Source of the DNA: an uncultured Gammaproteobacteria bacterium
GTDB taxonomy: Bacteria; Patescibacteriota; Microgenomatia; CAYXHB01
Reading direction: 5' to 3'
Length of the DNA: 40,446 bases
Assembly (NCBI GenBank): GCA_964444295.1
Contig: CAYUGO010000002.1
Location: 1-40,446 of the forward strand
Positions 21,454 to 38,515 of this stretch are shown here, piece by piece. Positions within the stretch are counted from its first letter, which is position 1. Each line of letters opens with the position of its first letter. The notes under the pieces were generated by a model. The model saw nothing but the letters and a program-made list of their open reading frames with translations. It was not told where the DNA came from and ran no database searches. Position numbers and translations under genes: made by a program.

Positions 21454-22473
21454 TTAGTCGAAGAGTTTTTTAGTGGTTTCTTGAGGAGGAGAAATGTGGA
21501 GATGTTGGTAAGCCTGGTGAGTTAACATCCGTCCTCTCGGTGTGCGTTTGATAAAACCTATTTGCATGAGGTAGGGTTCGGTAACATCCTCAAGGGTCCG
21601 TTTGTCTTCAGAAAGTGATGCGGCCAAAGTATCTAACCCGACAGGTCCTCCTTGGTAGAATTTGGCAATGATTTCTAAAAATTGGCGGTCATTGTTGTCT
21701 AGCCCCAGATCGTCGATTTCGAATAATTCTAATGTTTCAAGGACAACTTTTTGGGTAATGGTGGGGAGTTGAGATATTTGGGCAACGTCTCTAGTTCGTT
21801 TGAGGAGTTTGTTAGCTATGCGGGGAGTGCCGCGAGACCGTTGAGCAAGAGTAAGGGCCGCTTGGGGTTCAATGGTAAATCCAAGAACTTGGGCTGAGCG
21901 AGTGAGGATAGATGTTAGTTCTTGGGGTTTGTAGAATTCCAGTTTGTGAATGGCACCAAATCGGTCTCGTAGAGGCGCGCTGATTAATCCGGTTTGGGTG
22001 GTGGCGCCAATGATAGTAAATTTGGGAAGATCGAGTTTGAGTGTACGGGCGGCAGGTCCTTTGCCGACGATGATATCAAGAAAAAAATCTTCCATGGCGG
22101 GATATAAAGTTTCTTCGACGATTTTGTTGAGTCTATGTATTTCATCGATAAATAAGATATCTCCTGTCCCAAGATTGGTAAGAATTGAGGCTAAGTCTCC
22201 GGCCCGTTCTAAGGCTGGGCCTGAGGTGGTTCTAATTTGGACGCCTAGTTCATGAGCCATGATATGGGCTAGTGTTGTTTTGCCTAATCCTGGTGGCCCG
22301 TAGATAAGTAAATGGTCGATAGGTTCGGCTCTTTCTTGAGCAGCTTGAATAAAGATGTGAAGATGTTTTTTGACTTTGGATTGGCCTGTGAATTCTTTTA
22401 GCTTGGTTGGACGGAGGGTGAAGTCAAGTTGTTCGTCTTGGGGGGTTATATTGGTGGGACTGATGGTGGTCAT
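21454..22473 (-). CDS. ruvB: Holliday junction branch migration ATPase RuvB
   Basis: 339 aa. It has Walker A GPPGLGKTT, Walker B ILFIDEIHRL, IGATT, RDRFG, and a C-terminal winged helix. Confidence 0.95.
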   Translation of the reverse strand: MTTISPTNITPQDEQLDFTLRPTKLKEFTGQSKVKKHLHIFIQAAQERAEPIDHLLIYGPPGLGKTTLAHIMAHELGVQIRTTSGPALERAGDLASILTNLGTGDILFIDEIHRLNKIVEETLYPAMEDFFLDIIVGKGPAARTLKLDLPKFTIIGATTQTGLISAPLRDRFGAIHKLEFYKPQELTSILTRSAQVLGFTIEPQAALTLAQRSRGTPRIANKLLKRTRDVAQISQLPTITQKVVLETLELFEIDDLGLDNNDRQFLEIIAKFYQGGPVGLDTLAASLSEDKRTLEDVTEPYLMQIGFIKRTPRGRMLTHQAYQHLHISPPQETTKKLFD

Positions 22474-22517
22474 GCGTGCTTTAGCGTATCAGATTTGGAT
22501 GATGGGTGCAATTTTGG

Positions 22518-23417
22518 TTAGTTTGTGATGTTTATTGGTGTGGGGGTTTTTATTATTTTAGATTGTGGGTGAAGTTGATGGTAAGTTATTTTGTACAATA
22601 AATATACAACAAGAGTGGCAGATGTGACGGAAATTATTAAACTGAGAGTGAATGAAATAGGGGTGCTTTGGGGTGGAATCGGGATGTTTAAGAAGTGGCG
22701 TTGATGTGTAATGGCATTAGATAGTTGAGGATTATGAATGGATGTGGGAGTTGTGGAAATGGTGGGAGTGGTATTGAGGGTTGCTGCGAAAGTAGCGGTT
22801 AATGTTTCGGTCGGAATTGAGACAATCGGGGGAGATATTTGGGAAGGTGTATTGGAGGATGTGGTCGAAATATGGATAGACTGAGTAGGGGTGGGTGATG
22901 AGGGTGCTTGGATGTTGAGTTGAAGATTGTGAACTTCGTTAAGAATATCACCTTGGCCTGTGGTGACTGCGATGTTCGAATCGGTAGTTTGGCCAGAGAA
23001 GAAGATGATATCAAGATTGGTCGAGCCTGATTGGAGGGCTTTGAAATTTAGAGTTGCAAGAGTGTTTGTCCCGTTGAATTGTGAGTCCAGAGAGTTAGCG
23101 AAGGTTGAGATGTGAATAGTTCCGAGATCATTATCAAAATTTTTTTTAATAAAATTATCAAAAATTGTACCTTCTTCGATTGAAGTGATTTGAATAAACT
23201 GGGGATTAAATTTTATTTTGACACCTGCCCCTGCGGTTTCGTTTCCAGCGGTATCGAGGATGATATTTATTTGGGATGATTGTTCTACAATTGGATTTGG
23301 GGTGGAGGTAGTGAGACTGAATGAAGGACTTGCGGCAAGTGTTGGGAATGGATTAGTTAATGAATTAAGTAAGAGGGTGACAAGGATGATAATTGAGGAA
23401 GTTAGATGGAGTCGCAC
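22518..23417 (-). CDS. membrane-anchored cohesin-domain protein (candidate anchoring scaffoldin A)
   Basis: 299 aa with a GTG start. A signal peptide is followed by a cohesin-like module (INIILDTAGNETAGAGVKIKFNPQFIQITSIEEG...GTIHIS...LATLNFKALQSGSTNLDIIF...TDSNIAV). Then come a Ser/Thr/Pro linker, a C-terminal TM helix ISFTLSLIISVTSATLVVYLLY and a short tail. Confidence 0.7.
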   Translation of the reverse strand: MRLHLTSSIIILVTLLLNSLTNPFPTLAASPSFSLTTSTPNPIVEQSSQINIILDTAGNETAGAGVKIKFNPQFIQITSIEEGTIFDNFIKKNFDNDLGTIHISTFANSLDSQFNGTNTLATLNFKALQSGSTNLDIIFFSGQTTDSNIAVTTGQGDILNEVHNLQLNIQAPSSPTPTQSIHISTTSSNTPSQISPPIVSIPTETLTATFAATLNTTPTISTTPTSIHNPQLSNAITHQRHFLNIPIPPQSTPISFTLSLIISVTSATLVVYLLYKITYHQLHPQSKIIKTPTPINITN

Positions 23418-23448
23418 AGATATTGTTTATTATATAGATCAGTTTAAC

Positions 23449-24234
23449 TTAGTAAGTTGGAGGCACAGTGTTGTTCGTGTAAGGGGGAGAATCAGTAGGT
23501 GGAAGTGGGTTAGTTGGTGATTGATTATCAGTTTTGATGATGATTGTAGGTTCTTGAGGGGAAGTATTTTTGTTTTTGAGGAGTAAAAATAAAACAATAA
23601 TGGTGATGATAATGGCAGCAATTATAGATCCGATGATATAGATGAGATTATTGTTAGCTGAGTTGGTCATTGGAGGAGAAAGGGTTGTATCATCCGTGAC
23701 AGTTGTGTTAGCAATATTTGGATTAGGAGAGATAGAAACTGTGAGAGAGTTAGTGTATGCGAGGATATCTCCGTTGCCATATGTAACTGCGATATTGGAA
23801 TCTCTGGTGTTATTGGGAAGGTAGTTAAATTTGACGGTGGTTTGACCAACTGATTTAGATCGGAAAGTAATAGTTGCGAAACGGTCTATGCCTTGATATA
23901 GAGATTGAGAAGTAGGATCTTTGATACCAGAAATGGAGATAGTGCCTTTGGCATTATCGTATGTGGCATTTGGGTATGAGTCAAAAATAGGATATGTGTC
24001 TATTTTGGTAACTTCAAGATTGTTTTGGCTATAAAAAAGTTCTGCACCGACTCCAGCAACCTCTTGATTAGAGGTATCAATTCTGAGATCAACTGTGAAT
24101 GTTTCGTTGACAGTTGAATTAGTCTGGGTTGGTTCAAGTAAAAGGCTGGGGAGGTTGTTTTGGGCAAGAAGATTAGTACTGTGAAGGAATATAATACCTA
24201 GAGATAAAAAAAGAGAAAGTGCAATTTTATTCAT
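23449..24234 (-). CDS. membrane-anchored cohesin-domain protein (candidate anchoring scaffoldin B)
   Basis: 261 aa. A signal peptide is followed by a cohesin-like module (FTVDLRIDTSNQEVAGVGAELFYSQNNLEVTKID...GTISISG...FATITFRSKSVGQTTVKFNY...RDSNIAV). Then come the TM helix LIYIIGSIIAAIIITIIVLFLLL and a Pro-rich tail. Confidence 0.7.
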   Translation of the reverse strand: MNKIALSLFLSLGIIFLHSTNLLAQNNLPSLLLEPTQTNSTVNETFTVDLRIDTSNQEVAGVGAELFYSQNNLEVTKIDTYPIFDSYPNATYDNAKGTISISGIKDPTSQSLYQGIDRFATITFRSKSVGQTTVKFNYLPNNTRDSNIAVTYGNGDILAYTNSLTVSISPNPNIANTTVTDDTTLSPPMTNSANNNLIYIIGSIIAAIIITIIVLFLLLKNKNTSPQEPTIIIKTDNQSPTNPLPPTDSPPYTNNTVPPTY

Positions 24235-24255
24235 GATGACTGATTGAGAGAATAT

Positions 24256-25899
24256 TTATTGGAGAACGTCATCTTGTTTGTTCCAGTTGTCGCGCATGAT
24301 GGCGAAGTCTAGAGCATTGAGTTCTCCGCTGCGATCGAGATCGGCGAGACTATAGTTCTTAAAGAAGTTGGGAAGTACGTGGAGAGTGTAGTCAATTTCG
24401 TTAATCTCACCATCTTGATTGAAGTCGCCTCCGAGAAGCGGTGATTGAGTTAGATTGATAAGTTGTTCTTGGGCTGTGATATTAATGGGGTTGGTGTTTG
24501 TGCCGAATTTTTTGGCTAGGTAGCCTGGAGCTTTGACGGTGAATATATAATTACCTGAGGCTACATTGATTGATACTTGACCGTTAGTATTGGTTTGGGA
24601 TTGAACTTCGGAGGTTTGATTGTTGGACAGTTTTTTGATTTCGATGGTCACAGGTAGATTTTTGGCGATACCGGAGGTGATGCCTTTCCCTTGGAAATTA
24701 ACTTGGAGAGTTGCACTTAATGTGGGAACTGGAGTTGGTCCAGTGGTGGGTACGGCGGTGGGGATTGCTGTAGGAGCTGGTGTATTAGTCGGGGTAGGGG
24801 TTGGAACATTGCTAGGAACTGGAGTGGGGGTGTTGGTAGGAGCCAAGGTTGCTGTTGGAGCAGCAATTATAGTGATAGCTTGGTTATTAACTTGGGATAA
24901 AATATCAACAGGATTGTTACCGGCGTTGAATTTGACAAGGTTGCTGTCATTGGGGTTGTTAGGAGAAAATTGATAGTTGATTGGGGTTGAAGCAATGGTT
25001 TTGAGCGGTTGGAAGGTAATTCTGGCGAAGATCAAATTGTTGCCGATCGCTGGAGTTGGATTGGCAGAGGTGCCGATATTCGCTGCGATGTTAATTGTTC
25101 CAGCTGTGTTGTCGTAAGCTTTGACGGCATATGAGCTAAATGCTGATGGAGTTGATTGTTCTACGCTGATGACTTTGAGATATTGAGGATTGAAGGTTAT
25201 GTCGGCATCAACGGCACTTAATTGTTCACCTGCGGAATTGACAGTAGTTTCAACTGTGAAGTTTTGGTTGACTGTTTGGGGATTTGGTTTACTTAGATTA
25301 GTAAAGGCGAGAGTAGGAGTGTCTGTATTAACTACGATTTGACCATTAGTGGCTGACGCAAGAGTATTTTCGGCTTGGAGATTAGCTACAAGAGATGGTC
25401 TGTTTGAGGTAGTATCAATTACAAGGTCAGAGGTCCCCGCGGTTATTACTTGGTATGTAATATTTGCGACTGCACCAGGGACCACCCCACCATAGTTACT
25501 TCCAAGAGGGAATCCGATTGCATAACGGATGTCGCCGTTGCCGAAAGTTTTTTGAATTACGACAGGTGCACCCCCTGCTTGATTTTGGAAATCAGTGAAA
25601 AAATTACCTGGTTGGATGTCATTAATTTGGATTACTGAAGCATTATAAGTAAGATGAAGTTCAATTGAATTGACTTGATCGCCATTTGGATTAATGTTAA
25701 CGGCGAATGAAGCTGATTCTGCGAGGCGGGGGGTACTTTGGGCTGGCTGAATAGCAAGCACCGATTTACCTGTGGCAGCTTGAGTGTTAGTTCTGGTTGG
25801 AATACGAGAAAGGTAGATACTGACAGGAAGAGCCAGAAGAGCGACTGCTAGAATTATGTACTTTGATTTATTTTTGGTTAATGAGTTTGGGAAGTTCAT
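24256..25899 (-). CDS. secreted adaptor scaffoldin-like protein: two cohesin-like modules, PT linker, Ig-like (CarboxypepD_reg-like) module, C-terminal canonical dockerin
   Basis: 547 aa. Cohesin 1 spans ~aa 45-190 and cohesin 2 ~aa 195-345 (FTVETTVNSAGEQLSAVDADITFNPQYLKVISVE...GTINIAAN...FARITFQPL). The linker is APTNTPTPVPSNVPTPTPTNTPAPT. The dockerin is GDFNQDGEINEIDYTL...ADLDRSGELNALDFAIM (nt 24259-24432). Confidence 0.75.
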   Translation of the reverse strand: MNFPNSLTKNKSKYIILAVALLALPVSIYLSRIPTRTNTQAATGKSVLAIQPAQSTPRLAESASFAVNINPNGDQVNSIELHLTYNASVIQINDIQPGNFFTDFQNQAGGAPVVIQKTFGNGDIRYAIGFPLGSNYGGVVPGAVANITYQVITAGTSDLVIDTTSNRPSLVANLQAENTLASATNGQIVVNTDTPTLAFTNLSKPNPQTVNQNFTVETTVNSAGEQLSAVDADITFNPQYLKVISVEQSTPSAFSSYAVKAYDNTAGTINIAANIGTSANPTPAIGNNLIFARITFQPLKTIASTPINYQFSPNNPNDSNLVKFNAGNNPVDILSQVNNQAITIIAAPTATLAPTNTPTPVPSNVPTPTPTNTPAPTAIPTAVPTTGPTPVPTLSATLQVNFQGKGITSGIAKNLPVTIEIKKLSNNQTSEVQSQTNTNGQVSINVASGNYIFTVKAPGYLAKKFGTNTNPINITAQEQLINLTQSPLLGGDFNQDGEINEIDYTLHVLPNFFKNYSLADLDRSGELNALDFAIMRDNWNKQDDVLQ

Positions 25900-25939
25900 C
25901 TTTGTTTATTGTGGGTTTATTAGTTGGGGATTGCAAGGG

Positions 25940-26224
25940 TTATTTACCAAAACTTATAGACAAAATTGTATAGTCTAGGATATTTACTGCGTTATCACCA
26001 TTGAGATCAGCTTTGTGATTATTGGTTCCCATTTGGCTAGAAAGAAATGTGTAGTCGAGAATGTTGACTTTACCGTCACAATTATTGGTGTCTCCAATAA
26101 CAGGGCAAGGGGCAGATTGAATATTAGTAACAGGAAGAGTAGGCGTAGCCGCCGAAACAGTAGGGCTTGTAATGAAGGTTAAAATCAAAAATCCAGTAAT
26201 AATTGTGGCAAGTTTTATTTTCAC
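25940..26224 (-). CDS. secreted dockerin-only miniprotein (94 aa)
   Basis: GTG start. A signal peptide ending VSA-A and a short linker are followed by CPVIGDTNNCDGKVNILDYTFLSSQMGTNNHKADLNGDNAVNILDYTILSISFGK. There is no other domain. Confidence 0.6.
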   Translation of the reverse strand: MKIKLATIITGFLILTFITSPTVSAATPTLPVTNIQSAPCPVIGDTNNCDGKVNILDYTFLSSQMGTNNHKADLNGDNAVNILDYTILSISFGK

Positions 26225-26257
26225 AAGTTAATGTTAATCATATTAATATTGTGGTGT

Positions 26258-28846
26258 CTATAGGGAATTGCCAAAATTAGCCGAGAGGATAGAGTAATCA
26301 AGGACATTAATAACACCATCTTGTTTTAAATCAGCCTTAGTATCATTAGTACCAAATTTAGAAGATAGGTAGGTAAAATCTAGTGCATTAACCACATTGT
26401 CACAGAGGTTAGTATCCCCAATTAATGGACAAGGGCGATTAAGAGGTGTGGAAGTTGGCGTTGGAGAATTGGTGGGTGTTGGAGGAAGAGGAGTCGGGGT
26501 GGCGGATGGAAGATTAGAAGCAATTATTTTTACTGCTAAGTCGTCGCTTAGATTGGAGATGGGCAGAGTAATATTTCCTGTAGAGTTGGTAGTAAGGTTT
26601 TGGGTTTGGGTAATAGTTCCATTATAAGTATTCCACCATTGAACTATATAGTTTGAACTAGGAGTTAGTTTGGTAGTAATGGTTGATGATTGAGGGGTAC
26701 TGGTTTTGTTCCAGGTGTGGTCTGCATTTTGGATCCAAATATATGCTTTAGTGCCATCGGATTTTTTTTGTCCGTAAGTTCGGATTTTGGTGTTCGTAGA
26801 GGTCGTTTGGGCGTCATTGAATCCTCCGCGATTGAGATCTAAGTCATTTATGTAATTATAGAAAGGTTTGGTAATACTAGCTTTGCCGTTGGTGATTTTT
26901 TGGATGTGTTCGGTATCAAACCAGTAACCTGTGGCGAAGGCGGCTCCTCGGGTGAGCTGTGACCAGAGCATGTTGTGATACCATGTGCCTGAATTGGCGG
27001 AAGTTATTTTGGGATCGTTGAGCGGGTTCCACCATTCAGCAGTTGAGCTTAATCCATTTTCTGCCCAGATTAAAGGTTTGTTAGCATTTTTGGCGTAAGC
27101 GACTTCACCGACTTGTTTGACCCACTCGGCCATATCATAGGTATATGAGGAAGATGTGGTGTTGGGATTGCCGGAGTATTCATGGAGATCTAAGTAATCG
27201 ATGTCAGGATATTTGTTTTGAGAATTACTATAAAATGGAAAGCCGTCGTAGAGGGAGCAACACCAAAATGAAGTTGTTGAAAGAACGGGATGGGCGCTAA
27301 GATTTTTGGTATAATGGGCAAGATTTTCTTGAACATTTTGCCAGTGTGATATGTCGTTAGGGTTTGCCTCGTTGACCGCTTCCCATGAATGAACTGCGGT
27401 TGAGTATCCCCAGCGAGCAATAAGATAACGATACCACTGTCTTTTGAGCCAGCTGGATTTGGTATTGTAAGGTTGGTCGTAACCAGTACCTTGGAGCCAG
27501 CTGGCCCAGGTGCCGTTTTCGTTAAGACTACGGAAGATGGGATCGTTTTTGTCATGAACATTATATTTAAGATAAATTCCATTAGCTTCTGCTTGTTGGA
27601 CTTGCCAATCGAAAAAAGCAGCTGGCCGTTGTTCGACGTAGGTGTGCATATCGGCAGTCGGATTCCTGATAATTTCTGCGCCATTTTCTTTGATTGATAG
27701 TTCGTAGATATCGGCCTTGCCTCCTGTCACATTGTCAAGATAAACCCAGATGTCGCTGCCTGTTCCGGATGGAGTTGTAAATGAGGCTTGGAATGTTTGC
27801 CATCCGTTGGTACCTTGAGTTTGAGTAATATGGGAGAAAGGTTTAGGAGAATTTCTTAGGGTATTTTCTACAGTTTCATCAGTGGGATTGCCCCAGATAG
27901 GATTGCCAAATTTGATAACTAATCCATAAGGGTAGGAAGAATTTCGTGGACCTGTGATGTTGGTAGTTTTGGCGGATAACTTGATTTGATAATTAGTATT
28001 GGGTTTTATGGGAGTAAAAAATGATTCATCCATCCAACTGGTTAGCCAGTAGCGACTGGCGTTAGGATATTCTAAGTTGTAAGCAAGCCCATCGCTATTG
28101 GGATAGCGGTCTTGGAGAGAGTTCGTGAACGAGACTCTGGTTGAAATGCCTTCATTCCCGTGTTGCTCAGCTGAGGATTTCCAGCGGGCCCAGTTGGCAG
28201 AATATGCTCCTGAACCTCCCATCCAAGGTCGGACAAAGTTGAGTCCGGTGTCTTTGTATTTGGAAAAATCTTCGTCACTATAGATAGGTCCAATGGGCCA
28301 GAAGAGTTTACCGTTGGAGAATTCAAAATAGCGATTATCAGTCGGACTGACTTTGATAAATCCATCTTTGGTAGGGGTTGTGGCGGTAAAAGATCCGGCG
28401 TTGAAGGTGGTGATGCCTGAGGCGTCGGTGGCACGGATTTGAACATTAAAAGTACCTTGTTCTTGTGGACTGAATCTAATTACCCAGTATTTTTTGTTGG
28501 TTTCGGTAAATTTTAGACTACTGCCAGAACCTGATTTGGTAGTTTCGGTCATGTAGAATCCAGGGTGGGTCCAAGTTTTGCCGTTTGCAGTAAAAATTCC
28601 TTCAACTGTTATTCCAGTTTTGGGAGTAATTCCGGAAGGCGGAGTGGAATCATATTGAAAAAAATAATTACTGGCAGTAGTGGTTAAATCAAATTTGGCT
28701 TCGTATTTTTCGTAGACTTTGACGGAGGAAGTTGTGGAGGAAAAATTTGATATAACTGGCCCATTAGATTGGGCTAGAGTTGGTAGAGGAAAGAGAGCTA
28801 AGAGTAAAAGAATTGAGATAAAGAGGACAATTTTAATTTGGTTCAT
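26258..28846 (-). CDS. secreted clan GH-A (GH5-like) glycoside hydrolase with N-terminal Ig-like (DUF5060-like) module and C-terminal dockerin, copy 1
   Basis: 862 aa. WEAVNEANP is the NE acid/base motif, DLHEY is the H-x-Y motif, and PLIWAENG is the nucleophile Glu ~105 aa later. Then come the PT linker PTPLPPTPTNSPTPTSTP and the dockerin CPLIGDTNLCDNVVNALDFTYLSSKFGTNDTKADLKQDGVINVLDYSILSANFGNSL. The stop codon is TAG. Confidence 0.8.
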   Translation of the reverse strand: MNQIKIVLFISILLLLALFPLPTLAQSNGPVISNFSSTTSSVKVYEKYEAKFDLTTTASNYFFQYDSTPPSGITPKTGITVEGIFTANGKTWTHPGFYMTETTKSGSGSSLKFTETNKKYWVIRFSPQEQGTFNVQIRATDASGITTFNAGSFTATTPTKDGFIKVSPTDNRYFEFSNGKLFWPIGPIYSDEDFSKYKDTGLNFVRPWMGGSGAYSANWARWKSSAEQHGNEGISTRVSFTNSLQDRYPNSDGLAYNLEYPNASRYWLTSWMDESFFTPIKPNTNYQIKLSAKTTNITGPRNSSYPYGLVIKFGNPIWGNPTDETVENTLRNSPKPFSHITQTQGTNGWQTFQASFTTPSGTGSDIWVYLDNVTGGKADIYELSIKENGAEIIRNPTADMHTYVEQRPAAFFDWQVQQAEANGIYLKYNVHDKNDPIFRSLNENGTWASWLQGTGYDQPYNTKSSWLKRQWYRYLIARWGYSTAVHSWEAVNEANPNDISHWQNVQENLAHYTKNLSAHPVLSTTSFWCCSLYDGFPFYSNSQNKYPDIDYLDLHEYSGNPNTTSSSYTYDMAEWVKQVGEVAYAKNANKPLIWAENGLSSTAEWWNPLNDPKITSANSGTWYHNMLWSQLTRGAAFATGYWFDTEHIQKITNGKASITKPFYNYINDLDLNRGGFNDAQTTSTNTKIRTYGQKKSDGTKAYIWIQNADHTWNKTSTPQSSTITTKLTPSSNYIVQWWNTYNGTITQTQNLTTNSTGNITLPISNLSDDLAVKIIASNLPSATPTPLPPTPTNSPTPTSTPLNRPCPLIGDTNLCDNVVNALDFTYLSSKFGTNDTKADLKQDGVINVLDYSILSANFGNSL

Positions 28847-31418
28847 GGATATTAATTAATTACTTTGATTTGAGAGGGATCGCTGATAATAATTTCTGGA
28901 TCCTTGCCTTCAGGCCAGTATGGAGTGACATAACCTGAGATGATAACTTTTTTATTTAGAAAGGTCATGGGGTCATAATTGAATTTGGATAAGTCTTTTT
29001 CAAAAATTCTAATTAATAAGGCTCCGTCGTGTGGATTTGTGAATCCTAGATATATTGCTTTGGGTCGATGATTGACGGCTGACTTGATGGTTCCTTGGAC
29101 TGTGACGTTTTGACCGATATATTTGGGGGCGTCCGTGTAGGAAATGGTTGGGAATTGAGAAGAATCAGCAGTTCCAAGAACTTGAGTATTTGGATTAGTT
29201 TGGGCTAAGGTTTGGTCAGACGTGTCTGAGGCAAGAGGATTGCCGTTGGTTAGAGCCATGATGGCCCCGTCGTTGGTTTTGACTAGAACTAGACCATCAC
29301 TGACGACGGTATAGGGATCAGTTCCAGAGTTATTGTCATTGTGATATTCGTAGAAGCCTGGTGGATAGCTGCGTTGGTCTCCGTAAGAATAAAGACCTGC
29401 TTGGCAGTAACGAGTATTTGCGTTGAATGGGCAGTTGGATGGACCATAAGATGTGCCTGTACCGCCTGGGAAAATTTGGGGATTACATTGGGAATTGGTG
29501 GGTGGACAGTAAACTTGTCTCCAGATGACAAATGGAGCGTCAGAAGTTTTGATGGGATTGGTAAATGATGCACCTAAGTTGGACGCGCGGTCGGTAATTT
29601 TTTTGGCTGAGTTAATGAGCCAATGACTATGGAAGATGGTGTCGCCTGACATAGCGATGTTCATCATTTCGTCGGTTTGAATGTCTGTGTAGCTGATAAA
29701 CCTCATGTCACCTGTTGAATAGCCCGAGACTGTATTGTTATCGAGAACCATTTCGCCCATGGTGGCATCTTCACGTCCATCGCACCAGCCCGTGCCACAA
29801 GCAAGTCCGTTGCGCCAGATTATGTAGGCTACTTCTTTGTCGTTAATAGTTTTGATGATCGGTTGAGGACCCATTGGTAAGGTACCTCCGTCACCAGCAC
29901 CGCCGTTGCCTACAGCAGGAACAAATGCTTGATTTCCTGTATCAAGGTTAAGTGGGAATAGTGCTTGAGCGCTTGGGGTTGATGCTAGAGCTGATTTGAT
30001 TTGGCTATTAGTTGTGGGATATGGATTCCATGTCCAGAGAGAATCCCAGTCAAGCCGATAACGGATAAATACTAAACCGTGTTGTTCAGCGATGACTGGC
30101 CATCCTTCTTCGGCTTGAGCTCCAGTTGAATTAAGTGTCCCTGACTGGTAATTACGGAGGGTTGGTTTTACTCGCCATTTGCGGGAGCCATCGGTGTTAT
30201 TAATTGCATGAACATATAAATCTTGGGTTAGATAAATAAGGGCATTGCGAGATGGAGAGTATGAAACAGGAGTTGAACTTGGTGAATTACCTTGGTATTC
30301 CCAGACTTTGGTCATGAGATTTTTATCGACTTTGGTAAGGGTTCCAGATTGAGAAACGATGTAAATAGAGTTATCAACTAGCAAGGGTGTTAGATTGAGA
30401 CTGGATGGAGCGGTGTAGGTTCTGGAGATTGAACCATTGGATGCATTAAGTTTGTATAGATTGTTGTTATTTGAAGCAATATAAACGAATTCGTTATTGT
30501 AGATTGGGGTTGAGGTTAGATTTCCGAGTGAGTTGTTGGACCATAATACTTGGCCGTTGGCTTTGTTTAGAGCAAAGATAGTATTGTTGGCAACAGTATA
30601 GACTCGAGATCCGCCTGTAATTGGTTGGACTAGGGGAGGGGCGCTAAGATGATTAGCTTGTTTTTTCCCGTCAGATCCGGCGCCATTCCATTGCCAAAGA
30701 TATTTCCAGGGGGTGGCTACTGTCTGGGGTGTATAACTTGTTCGTTGGGCGTTGTGTGCGAATTGAGTCCATTCGGTTGAACTAGTGGGACCTTGAGTTG
30801 GAGTAGGAGCGGGAGGAGTAGGTGAGTTAGTGGGAGCTGGGGTAGAAGTTGAGGGAGGTGAGGTTGGTCCGACTTTGCCAAAATTATTTGACAGAATAGT
30901 AAAGTCAAAAACATTGACATTATTATCTGAATTAAAATCTGCGCCTATATTATTGGAGCCGAAATTGGAAGAAAGATATGTAAAATCTAAGACATTAACT
31001 GTGTTGTTGCATGGTGGAGTGTCTCCTGGGAATGAACATCTAGTGCTGGTTTGGGCTTGGATTGTGAATTTGGATGTAGATAGGCGAGGAAAATCAAAAA
31101 TTAAATTGATTGAAATTAGTAGTAAAGATAATAGGATTAAGAGTTTCGTGTGATTCACTGATTTTATTATATATATTAGTTGACATTAATTACAAAGTTT
31201 TACCAAAGTTAGCAGAGAGGATGGAGTAATCCAGGACATTAATAACACCATCTTGTTTTAAATCAGCCTTGGGATCATTAGTACCGAATTTGGAAGAGAG
31301 ATAAGTAAAGTCTAGTGCATTAACTACATTATCACAGAGGTTAGTATCTCCGATTAGAGGACAAGGACGAGACAGAGGAGTGGAAGTTGGGGTTGGTTGA
31401 TTAGTGGGTGTTGGGGGA
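26487..31418. repeat. tandem direct repeat, unit 1 (4932 bp)
   Basis: The offset is exactly 4932 nt to unit 2. Spot checks at 26501/31433, 26521/31453, 28861/33793 and 31141/36073 are identical. All six-frame sub-ORFs in the track are also duplicated with identical translations. Confidence 0.9.
28852..31158 (-). CDS. secreted PQQ-like beta-propeller protein with N-terminal dockerin and C-terminal OB-like module, copy 1
   Basis: 768 aa with a GTG start. The dockerin is CSFPGDTPPCNNTVNVLDFTYLSSNFGSNNIGADFNSDNNVNVFDFTILSNNFGK (nt ~30877-31038), followed by a PT linker. Propeller blades repeat: VYTVANNTIFALNKANGQVLWS, VYIASNNNNLYKLNASNGS, IYIVSQSGTLTKVDKNLMTKVWE, LIYLTQDLYVHAINNTDGSRKWR. Confidence 0.78.
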   Translation of the reverse strand: MNHTKLLILLSLLLISINLIFDFPRLSTSKFTIQAQTSTRCSFPGDTPPCNNTVNVLDFTYLSSNFGSNNIGADFNSDNNVNVFDFTILSNNFGKVGPTSPPSTSTPAPTNSPTPPAPTPTQGPTSSTEWTQFAHNAQRTSYTPQTVATPWKYLWQWNGAGSDGKKQANHLSAPPLVQPITGGSRVYTVANNTIFALNKANGQVLWSNNSLGNLTSTPIYNNEFVYIASNNNNLYKLNASNGSISRTYTAPSSLNLTPLLVDNSIYIVSQSGTLTKVDKNLMTKVWEYQGNSPSSTPVSYSPSRNALIYLTQDLYVHAINNTDGSRKWRVKPTLRNYQSGTLNSTGAQAEEGWPVIAEQHGLVFIRYRLDWDSLWTWNPYPTTNSQIKSALASTPSAQALFPLNLDTGNQAFVPAVGNGGAGDGGTLPMGPQPIIKTINDKEVAYIIWRNGLACGTGWCDGREDATMGEMVLDNNTVSGYSTGDMRFISYTDIQTDEMMNIAMSGDTIFHSHWLINSAKKITDRASNLGASFTNPIKTSDAPFVIWRQVYCPPTNSQCNPQIFPGGTGTSYGPSNCPFNANTRYCQAGLYSYGDQRSYPPGFYEYHNDNNSGTDPYTVVSDGLVLVKTNDGAIMALTNGNPLASDTSDQTLAQTNPNTQVLGTADSSQFPTISYTDAPKYIGQNVTVQGTIKSAVNHRPKAIYLGFTNPHDGALLIRIFEKDLSKFNYDPMTFLNKKVIISGYVTPYWPEGKDPEIIISDPSQIKVIN

Positions 31419-33778
31419 AGAGGAGTCGGGGTGGCGGATGGAAGATTAGAAGCAATTATTTTTACTGCTAAGTCGTCGCTTAGATTGGAGATGGGCAGAG
31501 TAATATTTCCTGTAGAGTTGGTAGTAAGGTTTTGGGTTTGGGTAATAGTTCCATTATAAGTATTCCACCATTGAACTATATAGTTTGAACTAGGAGTTAG
31601 TTTGGTAGTAATGGTTGATGATTGAGGGGTACTGGTTTTGTTCCAGGTGTGGTCTGCATTTTGGATCCAAATATATGCTTTAGTGCCATCGGATTTTTTT
31701 TGTCCGTAAGTTCGGATTTTGGTGTTCGTAGAGGTCGTTTGGGCGTCATTGAATCCTCCGCGATTGAGATCTAAGTCATTTATGTAATTATAGAAAGGTT
31801 TGGTAATACTAGCTTTGCCGTTGGTGATTTTTTGGATGTGTTCGGTATCAAACCAGTAACCTGTGGCGAAGGCGGCTCCTCGGGTGAGCTGTGACCAGAG
31901 CATGTTGTGATACCATGTGCCTGAATTGGCGGAAGTTATTTTGGGATCGTTGAGCGGGTTCCACCATTCAGCAGTTGAGCTTAATCCATTTTCTGCCCAG
32001 ATTAAAGGTTTGTTAGCATTTTTGGCGTAAGCGACTTCACCGACTTGTTTGACCCACTCGGCCATATCATAGGTATATGAGGAAGATGTGGTGTTGGGAT
32101 TGCCGGAGTATTCATGGAGATCTAAGTAATCGATGTCAGGATATTTGTTTTGAGAATTACTATAAAATGGAAAGCCGTCGTAGAGGGAGCAACACCAAAA
32201 TGAAGTTGTTGAAAGAACGGGATGGGCGCTAAGATTTTTGGTATAATGGGCAAGATTTTCTTGAACATTTTGCCAGTGTGATATGTCGTTAGGGTTTGCC
32301 TCGTTGACCGCTTCCCATGAATGAACTGCGGTTGAGTATCCCCAGCGAGCAATAAGATAACGATACCACTGTCTTTTGAGCCAGCTGGATTTGGTATTGT
32401 AAGGTTGGTCGTAACCAGTACCTTGGAGCCAGCTGGCCCAGGTGCCGTTTTCGTTAAGACTACGGAAGATGGGATCGTTTTTGTCATGAACATTATATTT
32501 AAGATAAATTCCATTAGCTTCTGCTTGTTGGACTTGCCAATCGAAAAAAGCAGCTGGCCGTTGTTCGACGTAGGTGTGCATATCGGCAGTCGGATTCCTG
32601 ATAATTTCTGCGCCATTTTCTTTGATTGATAGTTCGTAGATATCGGCCTTGCCTCCTGTCACATTGTCAAGATAAACCCAGATGTCGCTGCCTGTTCCGG
32701 ATGGAGTTGTAAATGAGGCTTGGAATGTTTGCCATCCGTTGGTACCTTGAGTTTGAGTAATATGGGAGAAAGGTTTAGGAGAATTTCTTAGGGTATTTTC
32801 TACAGTTTCATCAGTGGGATTGCCCCAGATAGGATTGCCAAATTTGATAACTAATCCATAAGGGTAGGAAGAATTTCGTGGACCTGTGATGTTGGTAGTT
32901 TTGGCGGATAACTTGATTTGATAATTAGTATTGGGTTTTATGGGAGTAAAAAATGATTCATCCATCCAACTGGTTAGCCAGTAGCGACTGGCGTTAGGAT
33001 ATTCTAAGTTGTAAGCAAGCCCATCGCTATTGGGATAGCGGTCTTGGAGAGAGTTCGTGAACGAGACTCTGGTTGAAATGCCTTCATTCCCGTGTTGCTC
33101 AGCTGAGGATTTCCAGCGGGCCCAGTTGGCAGAATATGCTCCTGAACCTCCCATCCAAGGTCGGACAAAGTTGAGTCCGGTGTCTTTGTATTTGGAAAAA
33201 TCTTCGTCACTATAGATAGGTCCAATGGGCCAGAAGAGTTTACCGTTGGAGAATTCAAAATAGCGATTATCAGTCGGACTGACTTTGATAAATCCATCTT
33301 TGGTAGGGGTTGTGGCGGTAAAAGATCCGGCGTTGAAGGTGGTGATGCCTGAGGCGTCGGTGGCACGGATTTGAACATTAAAAGTACCTTGTTCTTGTGG
33401 ACTGAATCTAATTACCCAGTATTTTTTGTTGGTTTCGGTAAATTTTAGACTACTGCCAGAACCTGATTTGGTAGTTTCGGTCATGTAGAATCCAGGGTGG
33501 GTCCAAGTTTTGCCGTTTGCAGTAAAAATTCCTTCAACTGTTATTCCAGTTTTGGGAGTAATTCCGGAAGGCGGAGTGGAATCATATTGAAAAAAATAAT
33601 TACTGGCAGTAGTGGTTAAATCAAATTTGGCTTCGTATTTTTCGTAGACTTTGACGGAGGAAGTTGTGGAGGAAAAATTTGATATAACTGGCCCATTAGA
33701 TTGGGCTAGAGTTGGTAGAGGAAAGAGAGCTAAGAGTAAAAGAATTGAGATAAAGAGGACAATTTTAATTTGGTTCAT
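31190..33778 (-). CDS. clan GH-A glycoside hydrolase with C-terminal dockerin, copy 2 (chimeric 3' end)
   Basis: The protein is identical to copy 1 except for the last ~70 aa. There the linker/dockerin (TNQPTP, LSRPCP, NDPKADL, GKTL) matches the SGNH gene's dockerin instead. Confidence 0.8.
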   Translation of the reverse strand: MNQIKIVLFISILLLLALFPLPTLAQSNGPVISNFSSTTSSVKVYEKYEAKFDLTTTASNYFFQYDSTPPSGITPKTGITVEGIFTANGKTWTHPGFYMTETTKSGSGSSLKFTETNKKYWVIRFSPQEQGTFNVQIRATDASGITTFNAGSFTATTPTKDGFIKVSPTDNRYFEFSNGKLFWPIGPIYSDEDFSKYKDTGLNFVRPWMGGSGAYSANWARWKSSAEQHGNEGISTRVSFTNSLQDRYPNSDGLAYNLEYPNASRYWLTSWMDESFFTPIKPNTNYQIKLSAKTTNITGPRNSSYPYGLVIKFGNPIWGNPTDETVENTLRNSPKPFSHITQTQGTNGWQTFQASFTTPSGTGSDIWVYLDNVTGGKADIYELSIKENGAEIIRNPTADMHTYVEQRPAAFFDWQVQQAEANGIYLKYNVHDKNDPIFRSLNENGTWASWLQGTGYDQPYNTKSSWLKRQWYRYLIARWGYSTAVHSWEAVNEANPNDISHWQNVQENLAHYTKNLSAHPVLSTTSFWCCSLYDGFPFYSNSQNKYPDIDYLDLHEYSGNPNTTSSSYTYDMAEWVKQVGEVAYAKNANKPLIWAENGLSSTAEWWNPLNDPKITSANSGTWYHNMLWSQLTRGAAFATGYWFDTEHIQKITNGKASITKPFYNYINDLDLNRGGFNDAQTTSTNTKIRTYGQKKSDGTKAYIWIQNADHTWNKTSTPQSSTITTKLTPSSNYIVQWWNTYNGTITQTQNLTTNSTGNITLPISNLSDDLAVKIIASNLPSATPTPLPPTPTNQPTPTSTPLSRPCPLIGDTNLCDNVVNALDFTYLSSKFGTNDPKADLKQDGVINVLDYSILSANFGKTL

Positions 33779-36350
33779 GGATATTAATTAATTACTTTGA
33801 TTTGAGAGGGATCGCTGATAATAATTTCTGGATCCTTGCCTTCAGGCCAGTATGGAGTGACATAACCTGAGATGATAACTTTTTTATTTAGAAAGGTCAT
33901 GGGGTCATAATTGAATTTGGATAAGTCTTTTTCAAAAATTCTAATTAATAAGGCTCCGTCGTGTGGATTTGTGAATCCTAGATATATTGCTTTGGGTCGA
34001 TGATTGACGGCTGACTTGATGGTTCCTTGGACTGTGACGTTTTGACCGATATATTTGGGGGCGTCCGTGTAGGAAATGGTTGGGAATTGAGAAGAATCAG
34101 CAGTTCCAAGAACTTGAGTATTTGGATTAGTTTGGGCTAAGGTTTGGTCAGACGTGTCTGAGGCAAGAGGATTGCCGTTGGTTAGAGCCATGATGGCCCC
34201 GTCGTTGGTTTTGACTAGAACTAGACCATCACTGACGACGGTATAGGGATCAGTTCCAGAGTTATTGTCATTGTGATATTCGTAGAAGCCTGGTGGATAG
34301 CTGCGTTGGTCTCCGTAAGAATAAAGACCTGCTTGGCAGTAACGAGTATTTGCGTTGAATGGGCAGTTGGATGGACCATAAGATGTGCCTGTACCGCCTG
34401 GGAAAATTTGGGGATTACATTGGGAATTGGTGGGTGGACAGTAAACTTGTCTCCAGATGACAAATGGAGCGTCAGAAGTTTTGATGGGATTGGTAAATGA
34501 TGCACCTAAGTTGGACGCGCGGTCGGTAATTTTTTTGGCTGAGTTAATGAGCCAATGACTATGGAAGATGGTGTCGCCTGACATAGCGATGTTCATCATT
34601 TCGTCGGTTTGAATGTCTGTGTAGCTGATAAACCTCATGTCACCTGTTGAATAGCCCGAGACTGTATTGTTATCGAGAACCATTTCGCCCATGGTGGCAT
34701 CTTCACGTCCATCGCACCAGCCCGTGCCACAAGCAAGTCCGTTGCGCCAGATTATGTAGGCTACTTCTTTGTCGTTAATAGTTTTGATGATCGGTTGAGG
34801 ACCCATTGGTAAGGTACCTCCGTCACCAGCACCGCCGTTGCCTACAGCAGGAACAAATGCTTGATTTCCTGTATCAAGGTTAAGTGGGAATAGTGCTTGA
34901 GCGCTTGGGGTTGATGCTAGAGCTGATTTGATTTGGCTATTAGTTGTGGGATATGGATTCCATGTCCAGAGAGAATCCCAGTCAAGCCGATAACGGATAA
35001 ATACTAAACCGTGTTGTTCAGCGATGACTGGCCATCCTTCTTCGGCTTGAGCTCCAGTTGAATTAAGTGTCCCTGACTGGTAATTACGGAGGGTTGGTTT
35101 TACTCGCCATTTGCGGGAGCCATCGGTGTTATTAATTGCATGAACATATAAATCTTGGGTTAGATAAATAAGGGCATTGCGAGATGGAGAGTATGAAACA
35201 GGAGTTGAACTTGGTGAATTACCTTGGTATTCCCAGACTTTGGTCATGAGATTTTTATCGACTTTGGTAAGGGTTCCAGATTGAGAAACGATGTAAATAG
35301 AGTTATCAACTAGCAAGGGTGTTAGATTGAGACTGGATGGAGCGGTGTAGGTTCTGGAGATTGAACCATTGGATGCATTAAGTTTGTATAGATTGTTGTT
35401 ATTTGAAGCAATATAAACGAATTCGTTATTGTAGATTGGGGTTGAGGTTAGATTTCCGAGTGAGTTGTTGGACCATAATACTTGGCCGTTGGCTTTGTTT
35501 AGAGCAAAGATAGTATTGTTGGCAACAGTATAGACTCGAGATCCGCCTGTAATTGGTTGGACTAGGGGAGGGGCGCTAAGATGATTAGCTTGTTTTTTCC
35601 CGTCAGATCCGGCGCCATTCCATTGCCAAAGATATTTCCAGGGGGTGGCTACTGTCTGGGGTGTATAACTTGTTCGTTGGGCGTTGTGTGCGAATTGAGT
35701 CCATTCGGTTGAACTAGTGGGACCTTGAGTTGGAGTAGGAGCGGGAGGAGTAGGTGAGTTAGTGGGAGCTGGGGTAGAAGTTGAGGGAGGTGAGGTTGGT
35801 CCGACTTTGCCAAAATTATTTGACAGAATAGTAAAGTCAAAAACATTGACATTATTATCTGAATTAAAATCTGCGCCTATATTATTGGAGCCGAAATTGG
35901 AAGAAAGATATGTAAAATCTAAGACATTAACTGTGTTGTTGCATGGTGGAGTGTCTCCTGGGAATGAACATCTAGTGCTGGTTTGGGCTTGGATTGTGAA
36001 TTTGGATGTAGATAGGCGAGGAAAATCAAAAATTAAATTGATTGAAATTAGTAGTAAAGATAATAGGATTAAGAGTTTCGTGTGATTCACTGATTTTATT
36101 ATATATATTAGTTGACATTAATTACAAAGTTTTACCAAAGTTAGCAGAGAGGATGGAGTAATCCAGGACATTAATAACACCATCTTGTTTTAAATCAGCC
36201 TTGGGATCATTAGTACCGAATTTGGAAGAGAGATAAGTAAAGTCTAGTGCATTAACTACATTATCACAGAGGTTAGTATCTCCGATTAGAGGACAAGGAC
36301 GAGACAGAGGAGTGGAAGTTGGGGTTGGTGAATTAGTGGGTGTTGGGGGA
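31419..36350. repeat. tandem direct repeat, unit 2 (4932 bp)
   Basis: As for unit 1. The only difference I found between the copies' flanking homologies is a dinucleotide at 31398-31399 (tg) versus 36330-36331 (ga). Confidence 0.9.
33784..36090 (-). CDS. PQQ-like beta-propeller protein with N-terminal dockerin, copy 2
   Basis: The 768-aa translation is identical to 28852-31158. Confidence 0.78.
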   Translation of the reverse strand: MNHTKLLILLSLLLISINLIFDFPRLSTSKFTIQAQTSTRCSFPGDTPPCNNTVNVLDFTYLSSNFGSNNIGADFNSDNNVNVFDFTILSNNFGKVGPTSPPSTSTPAPTNSPTPPAPTPTQGPTSSTEWTQFAHNAQRTSYTPQTVATPWKYLWQWNGAGSDGKKQANHLSAPPLVQPITGGSRVYTVANNTIFALNKANGQVLWSNNSLGNLTSTPIYNNEFVYIASNNNNLYKLNASNGSISRTYTAPSSLNLTPLLVDNSIYIVSQSGTLTKVDKNLMTKVWEYQGNSPSSTPVSYSPSRNALIYLTQDLYVHAINNTDGSRKWRVKPTLRNYQSGTLNSTGAQAEEGWPVIAEQHGLVFIRYRLDWDSLWTWNPYPTTNSQIKSALASTPSAQALFPLNLDTGNQAFVPAVGNGGAGDGGTLPMGPQPIIKTINDKEVAYIIWRNGLACGTGWCDGREDATMGEMVLDNNTVSGYSTGDMRFISYTDIQTDEMMNIAMSGDTIFHSHWLINSAKKITDRASNLGASFTNPIKTSDAPFVIWRQVYCPPTNSQCNPQIFPGGTGTSYGPSNCPFNANTRYCQAGLYSYGDQRSYPPGFYEYHNDNNSGTDPYTVVSDGLVLVKTNDGAIMALTNGNPLASDTSDQTLAQTNPNTQVLGTADSSQFPTISYTDAPKYIGQNVTVQGTIKSAVNHRPKAIYLGFTNPHDGALLIRIFEKDLSKFNYDPMTFLNKKVIISGYVTPYWPEGKDPEIIISDPSQIKVIN

Positions 36351-37312
36351 AGAGGAGTCGGGGTGGGAACAGTTGTGGGAGTTATACCTGCATTAGTGAG
36401 CATCTCGTATTGAGTAAAGGGAGTAATGTTTAGATTAAAATTGGTGTTAAATGGTTGAGTGAACCAAAGGTTGGCCATAAGCCCGTTGGCTACTGTTCCT
36501 AAGTGACCTGCGGTGTCTCCCAGACGAAAATGGTGTGGCTCATTGTTTTGGGCAAATACGTGTATTTTTTCTCCAGCAATGAGAATATCTCCTGAGCTAT
36601 CTAGTTTGGAAACTACATTAGCTGTCATCACTGTGTTTAGGTCAACGAAAACAATTCCATTTGCATCAGCTTTGGCTTCCCATGCGGTATTGATTGTGTT
36701 TATGGCATTTGTGACACGAGCGCGTTTGGTGGGATCAGGGTAGAGCATCGCAATGGGTGGAAAAATTCCTGGATCGCCAATGCTGGTCATGACGATTTGG
36801 GTGTTGCCAGCTTGTTTGATAATATCGATGGCTTGGTTCATCTTACTAATTATTTCGTTGACTTTGGTGTTGATGTTTACTGTATTGTTATAAACGCTGT
36901 CATAAGTTTGATTCCAAAAATTAAAGTCATTGACTCCTATATGAATAAATACGTATTTAACTTCTCCTGATCGGATTTGGCTTGCGAGTCCGGTTGCTTG
37001 ACCTGAATCAATGAGATCTCTAGTTAAATTGCCACTTTTGGACCAGTTGTATTTGTATCCAGTTCTTCGGTTATCGCTCCAAGTTCCCCATGGTCCGAAA
37101 TTGAGGTTTCTTTTCTTTACCAGCAGCTCCGCCCAATTGAAAGTAGTAGCTGCATATGTGCCACCTCTATTATCGTTTGCTCTGTATTCATCGGAGTTAC
37201 TATCGCTTAAGATGCCGATCCCTTCGTTGTTGTATGTGGCAAACGTTATAGATGGAAAAATAATTAAATTAAGGAGAGATAAAAATAATAATGTAGCAAG
37301 ATATTTTTTCAT
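36122..37312 (-). CDS. secreted SGNH/GDSL-type esterase with C-terminal dockerin
   Basis: I chose the start at MKKYLATLLFLSLLNLIIFPSITFA (signal peptide). The track ORF extends to GTG 37357. Block I is GILSDSNSDEY, block III is IHIGVNDF, and there is a distal DTAGH. Then come a PT linker and a dockerin whose DNA matches that of 31190-31436 at all but two adjacent positions (31398-31399). Confidence 0.72.
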   Translation of the reverse strand: MKKYLATLLFLSLLNLIIFPSITFATYNNEGIGILSDSNSDEYRANDNRGGTYAATTFNWAELLVKKRNLNFGPWGTWSDNRRTGYKYNWSKSGNLTRDLIDSGQATGLASQIRSGEVKYVFIHIGVNDFNFWNQTYDSVYNNTVNINTKVNEIISKMNQAIDIIKQAGNTQIVMTSIGDPGIFPPIAMLYPDPTKRARVTNAINTINTAWEAKADANGIVFVDLNTVMTANVVSKLDSSGDILIAGEKIHVFAQNNEPHHFRLGDTAGHLGTVANGLMANLWFTQPFNTNFNLNITPFTQYEMLTNAGITPTTVPTPTPLPPTPTNSPTPTSTPLSRPCPLIGDTNLCDNVVNALDFTYLSSKFGTNDPKADLKQDGVINVLDYSILSANFGKTL

Positions 37313-37379
37313 TTTTAAGCCTGTAATTACCTTAACATAGTTGGGGATGATTGGCACGTTTTTGGGTTGGAGTAATGGG

Positions 37380-37943
37380 TTACTTTAGATTTTGGAGAGC
37401 GTATTTGATTTGGTTTTCGAGAGTGGTTATTTCTGGTGGAATATTGTTGAGTATTTTTTGTATCTCATGTGATTTGTAACCTAAGCTAATTAGAGCATTA
37501 CCGAGTTCGCTTTCTTGGGTGTCTGATTGGAGATCTAGTTCGTTAAGTGAGCCAAGTTTGGTCTTGAGATCGACGATGATTTTCTGGGCACCTTTTTTGC
37601 CGACGCCGGAGATTTGGGTAAAGAAAGAAACGTCGGCCGTCATGATGGCTTGGATAGTTTGGGATGAAGGTTGGTTTAGAATGGCTAGTGCTATTTTGGG
37701 ACCAATGCCTGACACAGAAATGAGTTGGCGGAAGAGATCGCGGTCGGATAGGGAGTTAAATCCATAGAGTGTTAGTTGGTCTTCGCGGACGTGAGTGTGG
37801 ATGTGAAGTTGGGTTGGAGAATTGAGAATTAAATTAGAAAGAAGTGGTTGGGGAGCGTGGATTTCATATCCCACACCATTGACATCCAGAGTGAGGGTTT
37901 GGTTGGAGATAAGGATTACTTGCCCTTGGAGGTATGAGATCAT
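37380..37943 (-). CDS. ruvA: Holliday junction DNA helicase subunit RuvA
   Basis: 187 aa. It has the N-terminal OB MISYLQGQV...VNGVGYEI and two HhH motifs (VSGIGPKIALAIL, ISGVGKKGAQKII). Confidence 0.9.
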   Translation of the reverse strand: MISYLQGQVILISNQTLTLDVNGVGYEIHAPQPLLSNLILNSPTQLHIHTHVREDQLTLYGFNSLSDRDLFRQLISVSGIGPKIALAILNQPSSQTIQAIMTADVSFFTQISGVGKKGAQKIIVDLKTKLGSLNELDLQSDTQESELGNALISLGYKSHEIQKILNNIPPEITTLENQIKYALQNLK

Positions 37944-38035: not shown

Positions 38036-38515
38036 TTATCTTAAGGTAAAGGCGTGGGTGATGGCTGCGGCAAGGGCATCGGCGGCATCGTCTGGTTTGG
38101 GGACTTCTTGTAGCTTGAGGATTGATTTGACCATGAATTGGACTTGTTTTTTGTCGGCTCGGCCATAGCCAGTGATTGTTTGTTTGATTTGGAGGGGGGT
38201 GTATTCAAAGATAGGAATACCTGATTGTTTGGCAGCAAGTAGGAGGACTCCGCGGGCGTGACCTACCGACATGGCGGTTTTGGCATTGGTATTGAAAAAA
38301 AGTTTTTCGACTACGATGGCTTGGGGTTTGAATGTAGTAATTAATCTGGTGGTTTGGGTATGAATTTGGATGAGACGTTCGGCAAGATCGAGTTTGGGGA
38401 TGGTGGTGATGCAGTCGCAAGTAATATCAGAAAATGAACTTGGAGCAGTGTATGTAAGGAATCCCCAGCCAGTAAGAGCCGTGCCGGGATCAAAGCCAAG
38501 AATGCGAGTAGGCAT
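38036..38515 (-). CDS. ruvC: crossover junction endodeoxyribonuclease RuvC
   Basis: 159 aa. ILGFDPGTALTGWG, VVEKLFF, GYGRADKKQV and DAADALAAAITHA are present. Confidence 0.92.
   Translation of the reverse strand: MPTRILGFDPGTALTGWGFLTYTAPSSFSDITCDCITTIPKLDLAERLIQIHTQTTRLITTFKPQAIVVEKLFFNTNAKTAMSVGHARGVLLLAAKQSGIPIFEYTPLQIKQTITGYGRADKKQVQFMVKSILKLQEVPKPDDAADALAAAITHAFTLR

Follow-up and report, generated by a model that had tools for sequence, protein, structure and literature searches.

The stretch of DNA analyzed here, a contig of 40,446 nucleotides (CAYUGO010000002.1 of assembly GCA_964444295.1; hereafter the window), carries an island of cohesin and dockerin genes in which one gene pair is present twice in tandem. 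The minus strand encodes every gene of this half of the window; in the order of transcription, these are ruvC, ruvA, a GDSL/SGNH esterase, two successive pairs of a 768-amino-acid (aa) beta-propeller protein and an 862-aa hydrolase, a 94-aa dockerin protein, a 547-aa cohesin and dockerin protein, a 261-aa open reading frame (ORF), a 299-aa cohesin protein, and ruvB. The esterase and hydrolase genes end in related modules that encode a PT-linker and a dockerin (dockerin A in the esterase, dockerin B in the last hydrolase). We describe the two copies, the junction between them, and the recombination that probably produced them.

Two direct copies of a propeller–hydrolase gene pair

The window was compared with itself at an offset of 4932 bp. 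Positions 26484-31397 were exactly the same as 31416-36329 over 4914 bp; two adjacent mismatches followed, TG at 31398-99 against GA at 36330-31, after which identity resumed, with 31400-31434 equal to 36332-36366. The contig therefore contains two adjacent direct copies, head to tail and 4951 bp each, which differ at this one dinucleotide (Table 1). The copies overlap by a 19-bp block, GGAAGAGGAGTCGGGGTGG, found exactly three times in the window (at 26484, 31416, and 36348) and in none of 100 shuffles. A repeat finder again returned three-fold periodicity at the unit ends, and the window is free of Ns. The repeat unit amounts to 1644 codons, and all four ORFs are unbroken: both 768-aa ORFs are identical, and the two 862-aa ORFs differ at five C-terminal residues. 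The mismatched dinucleotide changes a linker codon from TCA (Ser) to CAA (Gln), giving Ser794Gln in the chimeric hydrolase.

An earlier reading made from the letters and their ORFs (the sequence-only reading) had proposed a tandem duplication at an offset of exactly 4932, which the full self-comparison confirmed. Its overall layout holds, with two coordinates 2-3 bp off, and since the genes are on the minus strand, what it called the copy 2 hydrolase is the transcriptionally upstream copy.

Table 1. Positions of the repeat, its junctions, and the genes of the island in the window.
Feature	Position	Strand	Evidence or remark
ruvC	38036-38515	-	
ruvA, upstream flank of the island	37380-37943	-	Pfam RuvA_N/HHH_5/RuvA_C; ENA contig L001 carries an identical sequence (100%)
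GDSL/SGNH esterase ending in a PT-linker and dockerin A; 396 aa if begun at the ATG chosen in the ENA gene call	36122-37312	-	Pfam Lipase_GDSL_2, 42.9 bits
Linker/dockerin A module of the esterase	36122-36366	-	Isolated dockerin 24.8 bits against a cutoff of 22.9
768-aa protein (signal peptide, N-terminal dockerin, PQQ/BamB-like beta-propeller, C-terminal domain), first transcribed copy	33784-36090	-	Pfam PQQ_2, 61.7 bits; PDB matches to BamB and designed propellers
862-aa DUF5060/GH5-like hydrolase with chimeric C-terminus (hydrolase body plus linker/dockerin A, Ser794Gln)	31190-33778	-	
768-aa dockerin-propeller protein, second copy	28852-31158	-	Identical protein
862-aa hydrolase ending in its linker/dockerin B (module 26258-26502)	26258-28846	-	Isolated dockerin 26.2 bits
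94-aa ORF, signal peptide and dockerin only	25940-26224	-	Pfam Dockerin_1, 31.2 bits
547-aa cohesin and dockerin protein, scaffoldin-like	24256-25899	-	Pfam Cohesin 42.3 bits, Dockerin_1 24.6 bits
299-aa cohesin protein	22518-23417	-	Pfam Cohesin, 32.3 bits
ruvB, downstream flank of the island	21454-22473	-	Pfam RuvB_N, 259 bits
First-transcribed repeat copy, at the higher coordinates, with dockerin A, the spacer, the propeller gene, and the hydrolase body	31416-36366	-	Self-comparison
Repeat copy at lower coordinates, transcribed second	26484-31434	-	Self-comparison
31-bp spacer from dockerin A stop codon to propeller start, duplicated	31159-31189, also 36091-36121	-	
Sole difference between the copies	31398-31399		TG vs GA
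19-bp block, copy X (hydrolase linker)	26484-26502		
19-bp block, copy Y, crossover interval of the novel junction	31416-31434		Y=Z to 31434, Y=X from 31416
19-bp block in the esterase linker (copy Z), upstream boundary of the shared module	36348-36366		

Anatomy of the junctions

The unit ends at 26.4 kb (X), 31.4 kb (Y), and 36.3 kb (Z) were aligned in register. Through the spacer, dockerin A, and the linker, Y is the same as Z up to 31434, apart from the TG/GA dinucleotide, and from 31416 on it is the same as X, into the hydrolase body. X departs from Y and Z at 26483 and Z departs from X and Y at 36367; therefore, the exchange point is confined to the 19-bp block, and the switch between the two parental sequences falls inside shared homology. 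Some details given by the sequence-only reading need adjustment. The block common to all three junctions exists but spans 31416-31434, not 31419-36, and the identity of spacer and dockerin between Y and Z is real but stops at 31434/36366, not 31436/36368. Its estimate by eye of roughly 85% for the dockerin of copy 1 agrees with the 84-85% that we obtained for dockerin B against dockerin A over 226 nt.

The 19-bp block encodes TPTPLP, the first identical stretch of a PT-linker and dockerin module of 245 bp that the esterase and hydrolase share at 86% identity. Modules A and B differ at 26 codons synonymously and at 4 non-synonymously, and their exact blocks measure 38, 19, 17, and 14 bp. Their homology ends at the stop codon; the spacers 3' of X and Y are unrelated, as had been claimed for the one that follows copy 1. 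The middle junction gives an intact, in-frame chimeric ORF in which the hydrolase body is followed by the esterase linker and dockerin A. Diagnostic 21-mers span the three junctions (X, AGGAAGAGGAGTCGGGGTGGC; Y, GGGAAGAGGAGTCGGGGTGGC; Z, GGGAAGAGGAGTCGGGGTGGG), and the one across Y is unique, occurring in neither the X nor the Z junction.

The TG at 31398-99, 17 bp from the 19-bp block, is private to Y, both Z (36330-31) and X (26466-67) having GA. Because this dinucleotide is absent from X and Z, Y was not simply copied from Z. Templating of the TG by a near or distant sequence was considered and rejected: the window holds no donor, and a quasi-repeat with a spacing of 45 bp explains at most one of the two bases.

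Probable origin of the duplication

The repeat is probably a genuine tandem duplication that arose by unequal sister-chromosome recombination between linker/dockerin modules. The ancestral order would have been esterase–dockerin A, propeller, hydrolase–dockerin B, in which the PT-linker and dockerin modules of the esterase and hydrolase form direct repeats 4932 bp apart. Misaligned sister chromosomes would have exchanged within these modules in a single unequal crossover, resolved in the identical 19 bp that form the upstream border of the module, and the product would have been esterase–A, propeller, hydrolase–A' (the chimera), propeller, hydrolase–B. The dosage of the pair would double, because the ORFs are intact in each copy and the 31-bp spacer and a promoter-like element are present in both. 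Unequal recombination between the dockerin/linker ends of the hydrolase and SGNH genes had been suggested by the sequence-only reading; the junction anatomy, the unique 21-mer, the intact chimera, and the single-copy state of a relative support it. The crossover site, which had been placed in the dockerin/linker DNA, falls within the PT-linker, at the upstream border of the module, and not in the dockerin proper.

The promoter-like element, predicted by consensus only, is a sigma70-like match, TTGTAA-18-TATAAT (10 of 12 consensus positions), the best on the minus strand, at 31195-31166 and 36127-36098. It covers the last codons of dockerin A and the spacer before each propeller gene and is duplicated with the unit, so placed that the two propeller–hydrolase copies could be alike in expression. 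Promoter-like counts overall showed no excess over shuffles.

As to mechanism, resolution at the module edge would fit either branch migration that stalls at the border of heterology or RecA-independent template switching at the 19-bp repeat. RuvABC and RecF are encoded in the window, which is no proof of a RecA-type exchange. The data show the anatomy, the single copy of a relative, and the recurrent exchange between these modules; the enzymology (RecA-type exchange versus template switching), the recency of the event, and any selective benefit are parts of the best explanation that we infer. Involvement of a mobile element was rejected, as neither the unit nor its immediate flanks contain an insertion sequence (IS) or a transposase gene, and the sole integrase (1130-2029) is 24 kb away.

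Genomic duplication or assembly artefact

Several points weigh against this origin. Efficient RecA exchange usually needs a minimum length that a 19-bp block at best just reaches, and a 38-bp identical block was on hand, yet the exchange maps to the 19-bp block. The interior of the copies is perfectly identical, and their sole difference lies 35 bp from the unit boundary, a position with a probability of about 0.015 if random. A graph assembler that walks one collapsed 4.9-kb node twice would give the same pattern, keeping variants linked to the flanks and losing those of the interior. Contigs of the same strain found elsewhere (L001, L004, and L005) measure 1.7-2.4 kb at 2-4x coverage, and none reaches a junction.

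The repeat might accordingly be an assembly artefact, in which a single genomic copy was duplicated through a loop from chimeric reads or strain-mixed paths, or through a long-read mis-join. The perfect interior fits such an origin, as do a lone difference close enough to the boundary for a k-mer or read to reach it and for a short-read assembler to have phased it, the occurrence of the organism elsewhere only in fragmented assemblies at 2-4x, and the fact that the window is a whole metagenomic contig. However, a false duplication would build its junction from existing k-mers and have no private sequence. Here the junction requires a 21-mer found in neither parental junction, and because this 21-mer is unique, a de Bruijn graph with k of at least 21 would be unable to make Y from X and Z without reads that carry it; the TG is private as well. 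These observations lower the probability of an artefact without removing it. In addition, the join preserves the reading frame and coincides precisely with the border of true homology, as expected of a biological exchange, and perfect repeats are usually collapsed by assemblers, not expanded. We consider an artefact unlikely. The Y junction is probably real because of its unique 21-mer, its private dinucleotide, and the in-frame join at the edge of homology, and the copy number would then be at least 2.

A real junction could also stem from an excised circle of 4932 bp, or from a minority subpopulation merged into the consensus. Recombination of two 19-bp blocks at a single-copy locus would yield exactly the Y junction and the same assembly graph. 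A fresh excision product would, however, have GA instead of the private TG, and the unit lacks replication and mobility genes, which makes this origin highly improbable.

Searches for the junction and its products elsewhere were also made. Look-ups of the exact protein products (the hydrolase in both versions, the propeller, and the esterase) gave no match outside the window, and a protein search with the C-terminal 130 aa yielded no scorable match. JGI metagenome contigs gave no match to one 31-mer that covers the X, Y, and Z junctions or to a junction-adjacent 26-mer, a result that is uninformative and does not count as negative evidence.

For a genuine duplication by unequal recombination, the date is a separate matter. 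The duplication is not datable from zero divergence, because the zero divergence of the interior is unverified. The caveat of the sequence-only reading, that zero divergence may mean a recent origin, gene conversion, or an assembly effect, stands and is sharpened by the position of the sole difference, 35 bp from the boundary. Zero divergence between assembled repeat copies should not be taken as age without reads.

Copy number in a relative and exchange among the modules

The nearest genome in a collection of species representatives (contig CAZLQM010000025.1; L002) is 77% identical to the window at the nucleotide level. It carries ruvC, ruvA, propeller, and hydrolase once; after this single set come a second, different propeller gene, the gene for an unrelated dockerin protein, and the esterase gene. 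The comparison of copy number with a related metagenome-assembled genome (MAG), which the sequence-only reading had called for, therefore shows the pair in single copy in this one relative, where the esterase is placed elsewhere. The duplication would be younger than the split from L002, because L002 carries the pair once, and the gene order of the island is fluid. An older, diverged copy of the cassette in L002 was considered and rejected: a 511-aa gene has nothing but the dockerin in common with the hydrolase, and the second propeller is only 24% identical.

The 44-nt PT-linkers of the esterase and hydrolase are 90.9% identical within a genome, in the window and L002 alike, as against 54-59% between the genomes. 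For the dockerin core, identity is 85-93% within a genome versus 73-86% between genomes, with orthologous pairs at 78-83%. Because paralogues within a genome are more alike than orthologues between genomes, the linker/dockerin modules evolve in concert, with repeated exchange in both lineages. The idea that dockerin modules act as recombination handles thus gains independent support (linkers at about 91% within versus 54-59% between). Nothing in the literature searched connects dockerins with gene conversion.

Contigs from other samples differ from the window at 7 of 6461 bases. One of them, NODE_53931 of ENA assembly ERZ795034 (L005), is from another sample and the same strain; it matches the window over 2373 bp save for five differences, all within 25 bp of dockerin B (26276-26300 in the window, 10-34 in L005). 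Two of the five variant bases match dockerin A, and three are without a donor in the window, where a donor of the variant dockerin end was searched for and not found. These differences may be a gene-conversion tract or strain variant, or a chimeric, possibly artefactual low-coverage contig end. Dockerin B is also the outlier in the comparison with L002, at 73-79% identity to the dockerins there versus 83-86% for dockerin A.

These data bear on a different history for a real duplication, in which an old copy is kept identical by gene conversion, or in which then-identical A modules exchanged and the distal one was later converted to B by a third dockerin. The concerted evolution of the modules is clear, and such conversion would suit both the outlying dockerin B and the clustering of the L005 differences within it. 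At least two events would, however, be needed where one suffices, conversion that leaves 4.9 kb free of differences is demanding, and the L005 variants lie at a low-coverage contig end and are possibly artefactual. We regard this history as improbable and continue to favor the single unequal crossover.

Genes of the cohesin/dockerin island

Within whole proteins, the dockerin modules scored 18-21 bits, under the Pfam cutoff; alone, they reached 24.8, 26.2, and 31.2 bits, over the gathering threshold of 22.9. The isolated modules thus belong to dockerin type I (PF00404), and they contain its duplicated segments of about 22 residues, DNVVNALDFTYLSSKFG and DGVINVLDYSILSANFG. Cohesin partners are encoded nearby (42.3 and 32.3 bits), as in a cohesin–dockerin, cellulosome-like system. 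The 94-aa dockerin ORF has no cargo domain and is kept exactly in an ENA contig.

A profile of the hydrolase family matched PDB entry 9gmj ('DUF5060 domain-containing protein') with an E value of 8e-54 over most of its length, and GH5 endo-beta-mannanases weakly, with an E value of 5e-5. Asn492-Glu493 and Glu596 are invariant in the family, as are the catalytic residues of clan GH-A. The name 'hydrolase' for the 862-aa DUF5060 protein seems reasonable because of these profile matches and invariant residues. In three homologues from other metagenomes and lineages (P0006, P0024, and P0043), an N-terminal hydrolase and a C-terminal PQQ-like propeller are fused in one protein of about 1400 aa. This fusion in other lineages implies that the duplicated propeller–hydrolase pair is a functional unit of genes that work together.

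ruvA and ruvB, usually adjacent, are about 15 kb apart here, with the co-oriented cohesin/dockerin genes between them (21454-37943); in L002, too, ruvA is immediately followed by dockerin genes. A 637-aa ORF outside the island (12645-14558, minus strand) has no confident Pfam domain and a weak N-terminal dockerin match of 17 bits; positions 14293-14460 within it are similar in DNA to the dockerins of L002, making this ORF another dockerin-tagged gene.

Host lineage and other features of the window

The best named relatives of the RuvB protein are from Kuenenbacteria and Gottesmanbacteria, at about 62% identity. The plus strand of the window contains 28.6% G versus 12.7% C, and the skew ranges from +0.2 to +0.6 in all 1-kb bins, independent of gene orientation. 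At third codon positions, the skew is +0.76 in plus-strand genes and -0.69 in minus-strand genes. L002 (positions 1-13600) has the same extreme G/C disparity between strands. A whole-chromosome G/C strand disparity has been described for the Microgenomatia order UBA1400 (PMC7143001). The disparity of the window matches this lineage trait and is a taxonomic clue; the host is a Microgenomatia-like member of the candidate phyla radiation (CPR).

The L002 MAG is titled 'uncultured Gammaproteobacteria bacterium', a label that is probably wrong because L002, like the window, has a gene set of CPR type, a dockerin system, and an extreme skew between strands. Elsewhere in the window, two tRNA-Met (CAT) genes stand back to back on opposite strands, 66 bp apart (2594-2806); the second overlaps the start of a 141-aa ORF (2712-3137), which is probably spurious. 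An ATP-dependent DNA ligase of 626 aa with all three domains is encoded on the plus strand (14589-16469), amid housekeeping genes for FtsH, a 5'-3' exonuclease, a RecF-like protein, and Pth.

Implications of the duplication

CPR-type genomes are about 1 Mb in size, and recent duplicates are rare in them. If real, the duplication cleanly captures a natural gene amplification in a CPR genome, with a join readable to 19 bp, and the linker and dockerin, a targeting module, would also serve as homology for the amplification of cassettes and the swapping of tags. Homogenization of the modules within the genomes of two lineages supports a recurring process. Tentatively, PT-linker/dockerin modules in streamlined CPR genomes may be standing recombination substrates that homogenize tags across unrelated secreted enzymes and, in natural populations, generate variation in cassette copy number; the duplication seen here might then be a segregating, possibly selected amplification that varies between co-occurring strains. 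The locus offers a worked example for the module-driven evolution of cellulosome-like systems and leaves the concepts unchanged.

Comparison with known systems

Work by Anderson and Roth, by Lin, Capage, and Hill, and by Reams and Roth reportedly traced enterobacterial tandem duplications to unequal recombination between dispersed direct repeats, such as rrn operons, IS, repetitive extragenic palindromic (REP) elements, and coding repeats of rhs. Like these, the duplication in the window consists of direct head-to-tail copies with a hybrid join between pre-existing direct repeats, and a rise in gene dosage and structural instability would be expected of it. Unlike them, its repeats are short (245 bp) and only 86% identical, and they encode the PT-linker and dockerin with which unrelated genes terminate; the exchange is confined to 19 bp, the organism belongs to the CPR and has a small genome, and the event is known from sequence alone.

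In the cellulosome clusters of Clostridia and Ruminococcus (sca, cip-cel), cohesin scaffoldin genes lie beside genes for dockerin-tagged enzymes. The island resembles them in that a scaffoldin-like cohesin gene adjoins genes for secreted, dockerin-tagged carbohydrate-active enzymes and in the near-uniform dockerin protein sequences across different enzymes. It differs in its Microgenomatia-like CPR host, in splitting ruvA from ruvB, in that binding is predicted, and in its cargo, among which are a PQQ-like propeller whose dockerin is N-terminal and a dockerin of 94 aa that stands alone. The hydrolase itself resembles PDB entries 9gmj and 9gpc and GH5 endo-beta-mannanases in its profile matches and the invariant Asn492-Glu493 and Glu596; in contrast to 9gmj and 9gpc, to which its sequence identity is low, it has an added C-terminal linker and dockerin.

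Concerted evolution, or interlocus gene conversion, is known for rRNA operons, tuf genes, and repeats of surface proteins. As in those cases, the modules of the window are more alike within the genome than orthologues are between genomes; unlike them, they form part of genes that are not homologous. Tandem duplication mediated by repeats and concerted evolution are both textbook processes, and what is new here is the host, the type of module, and the fine resolution of the join.

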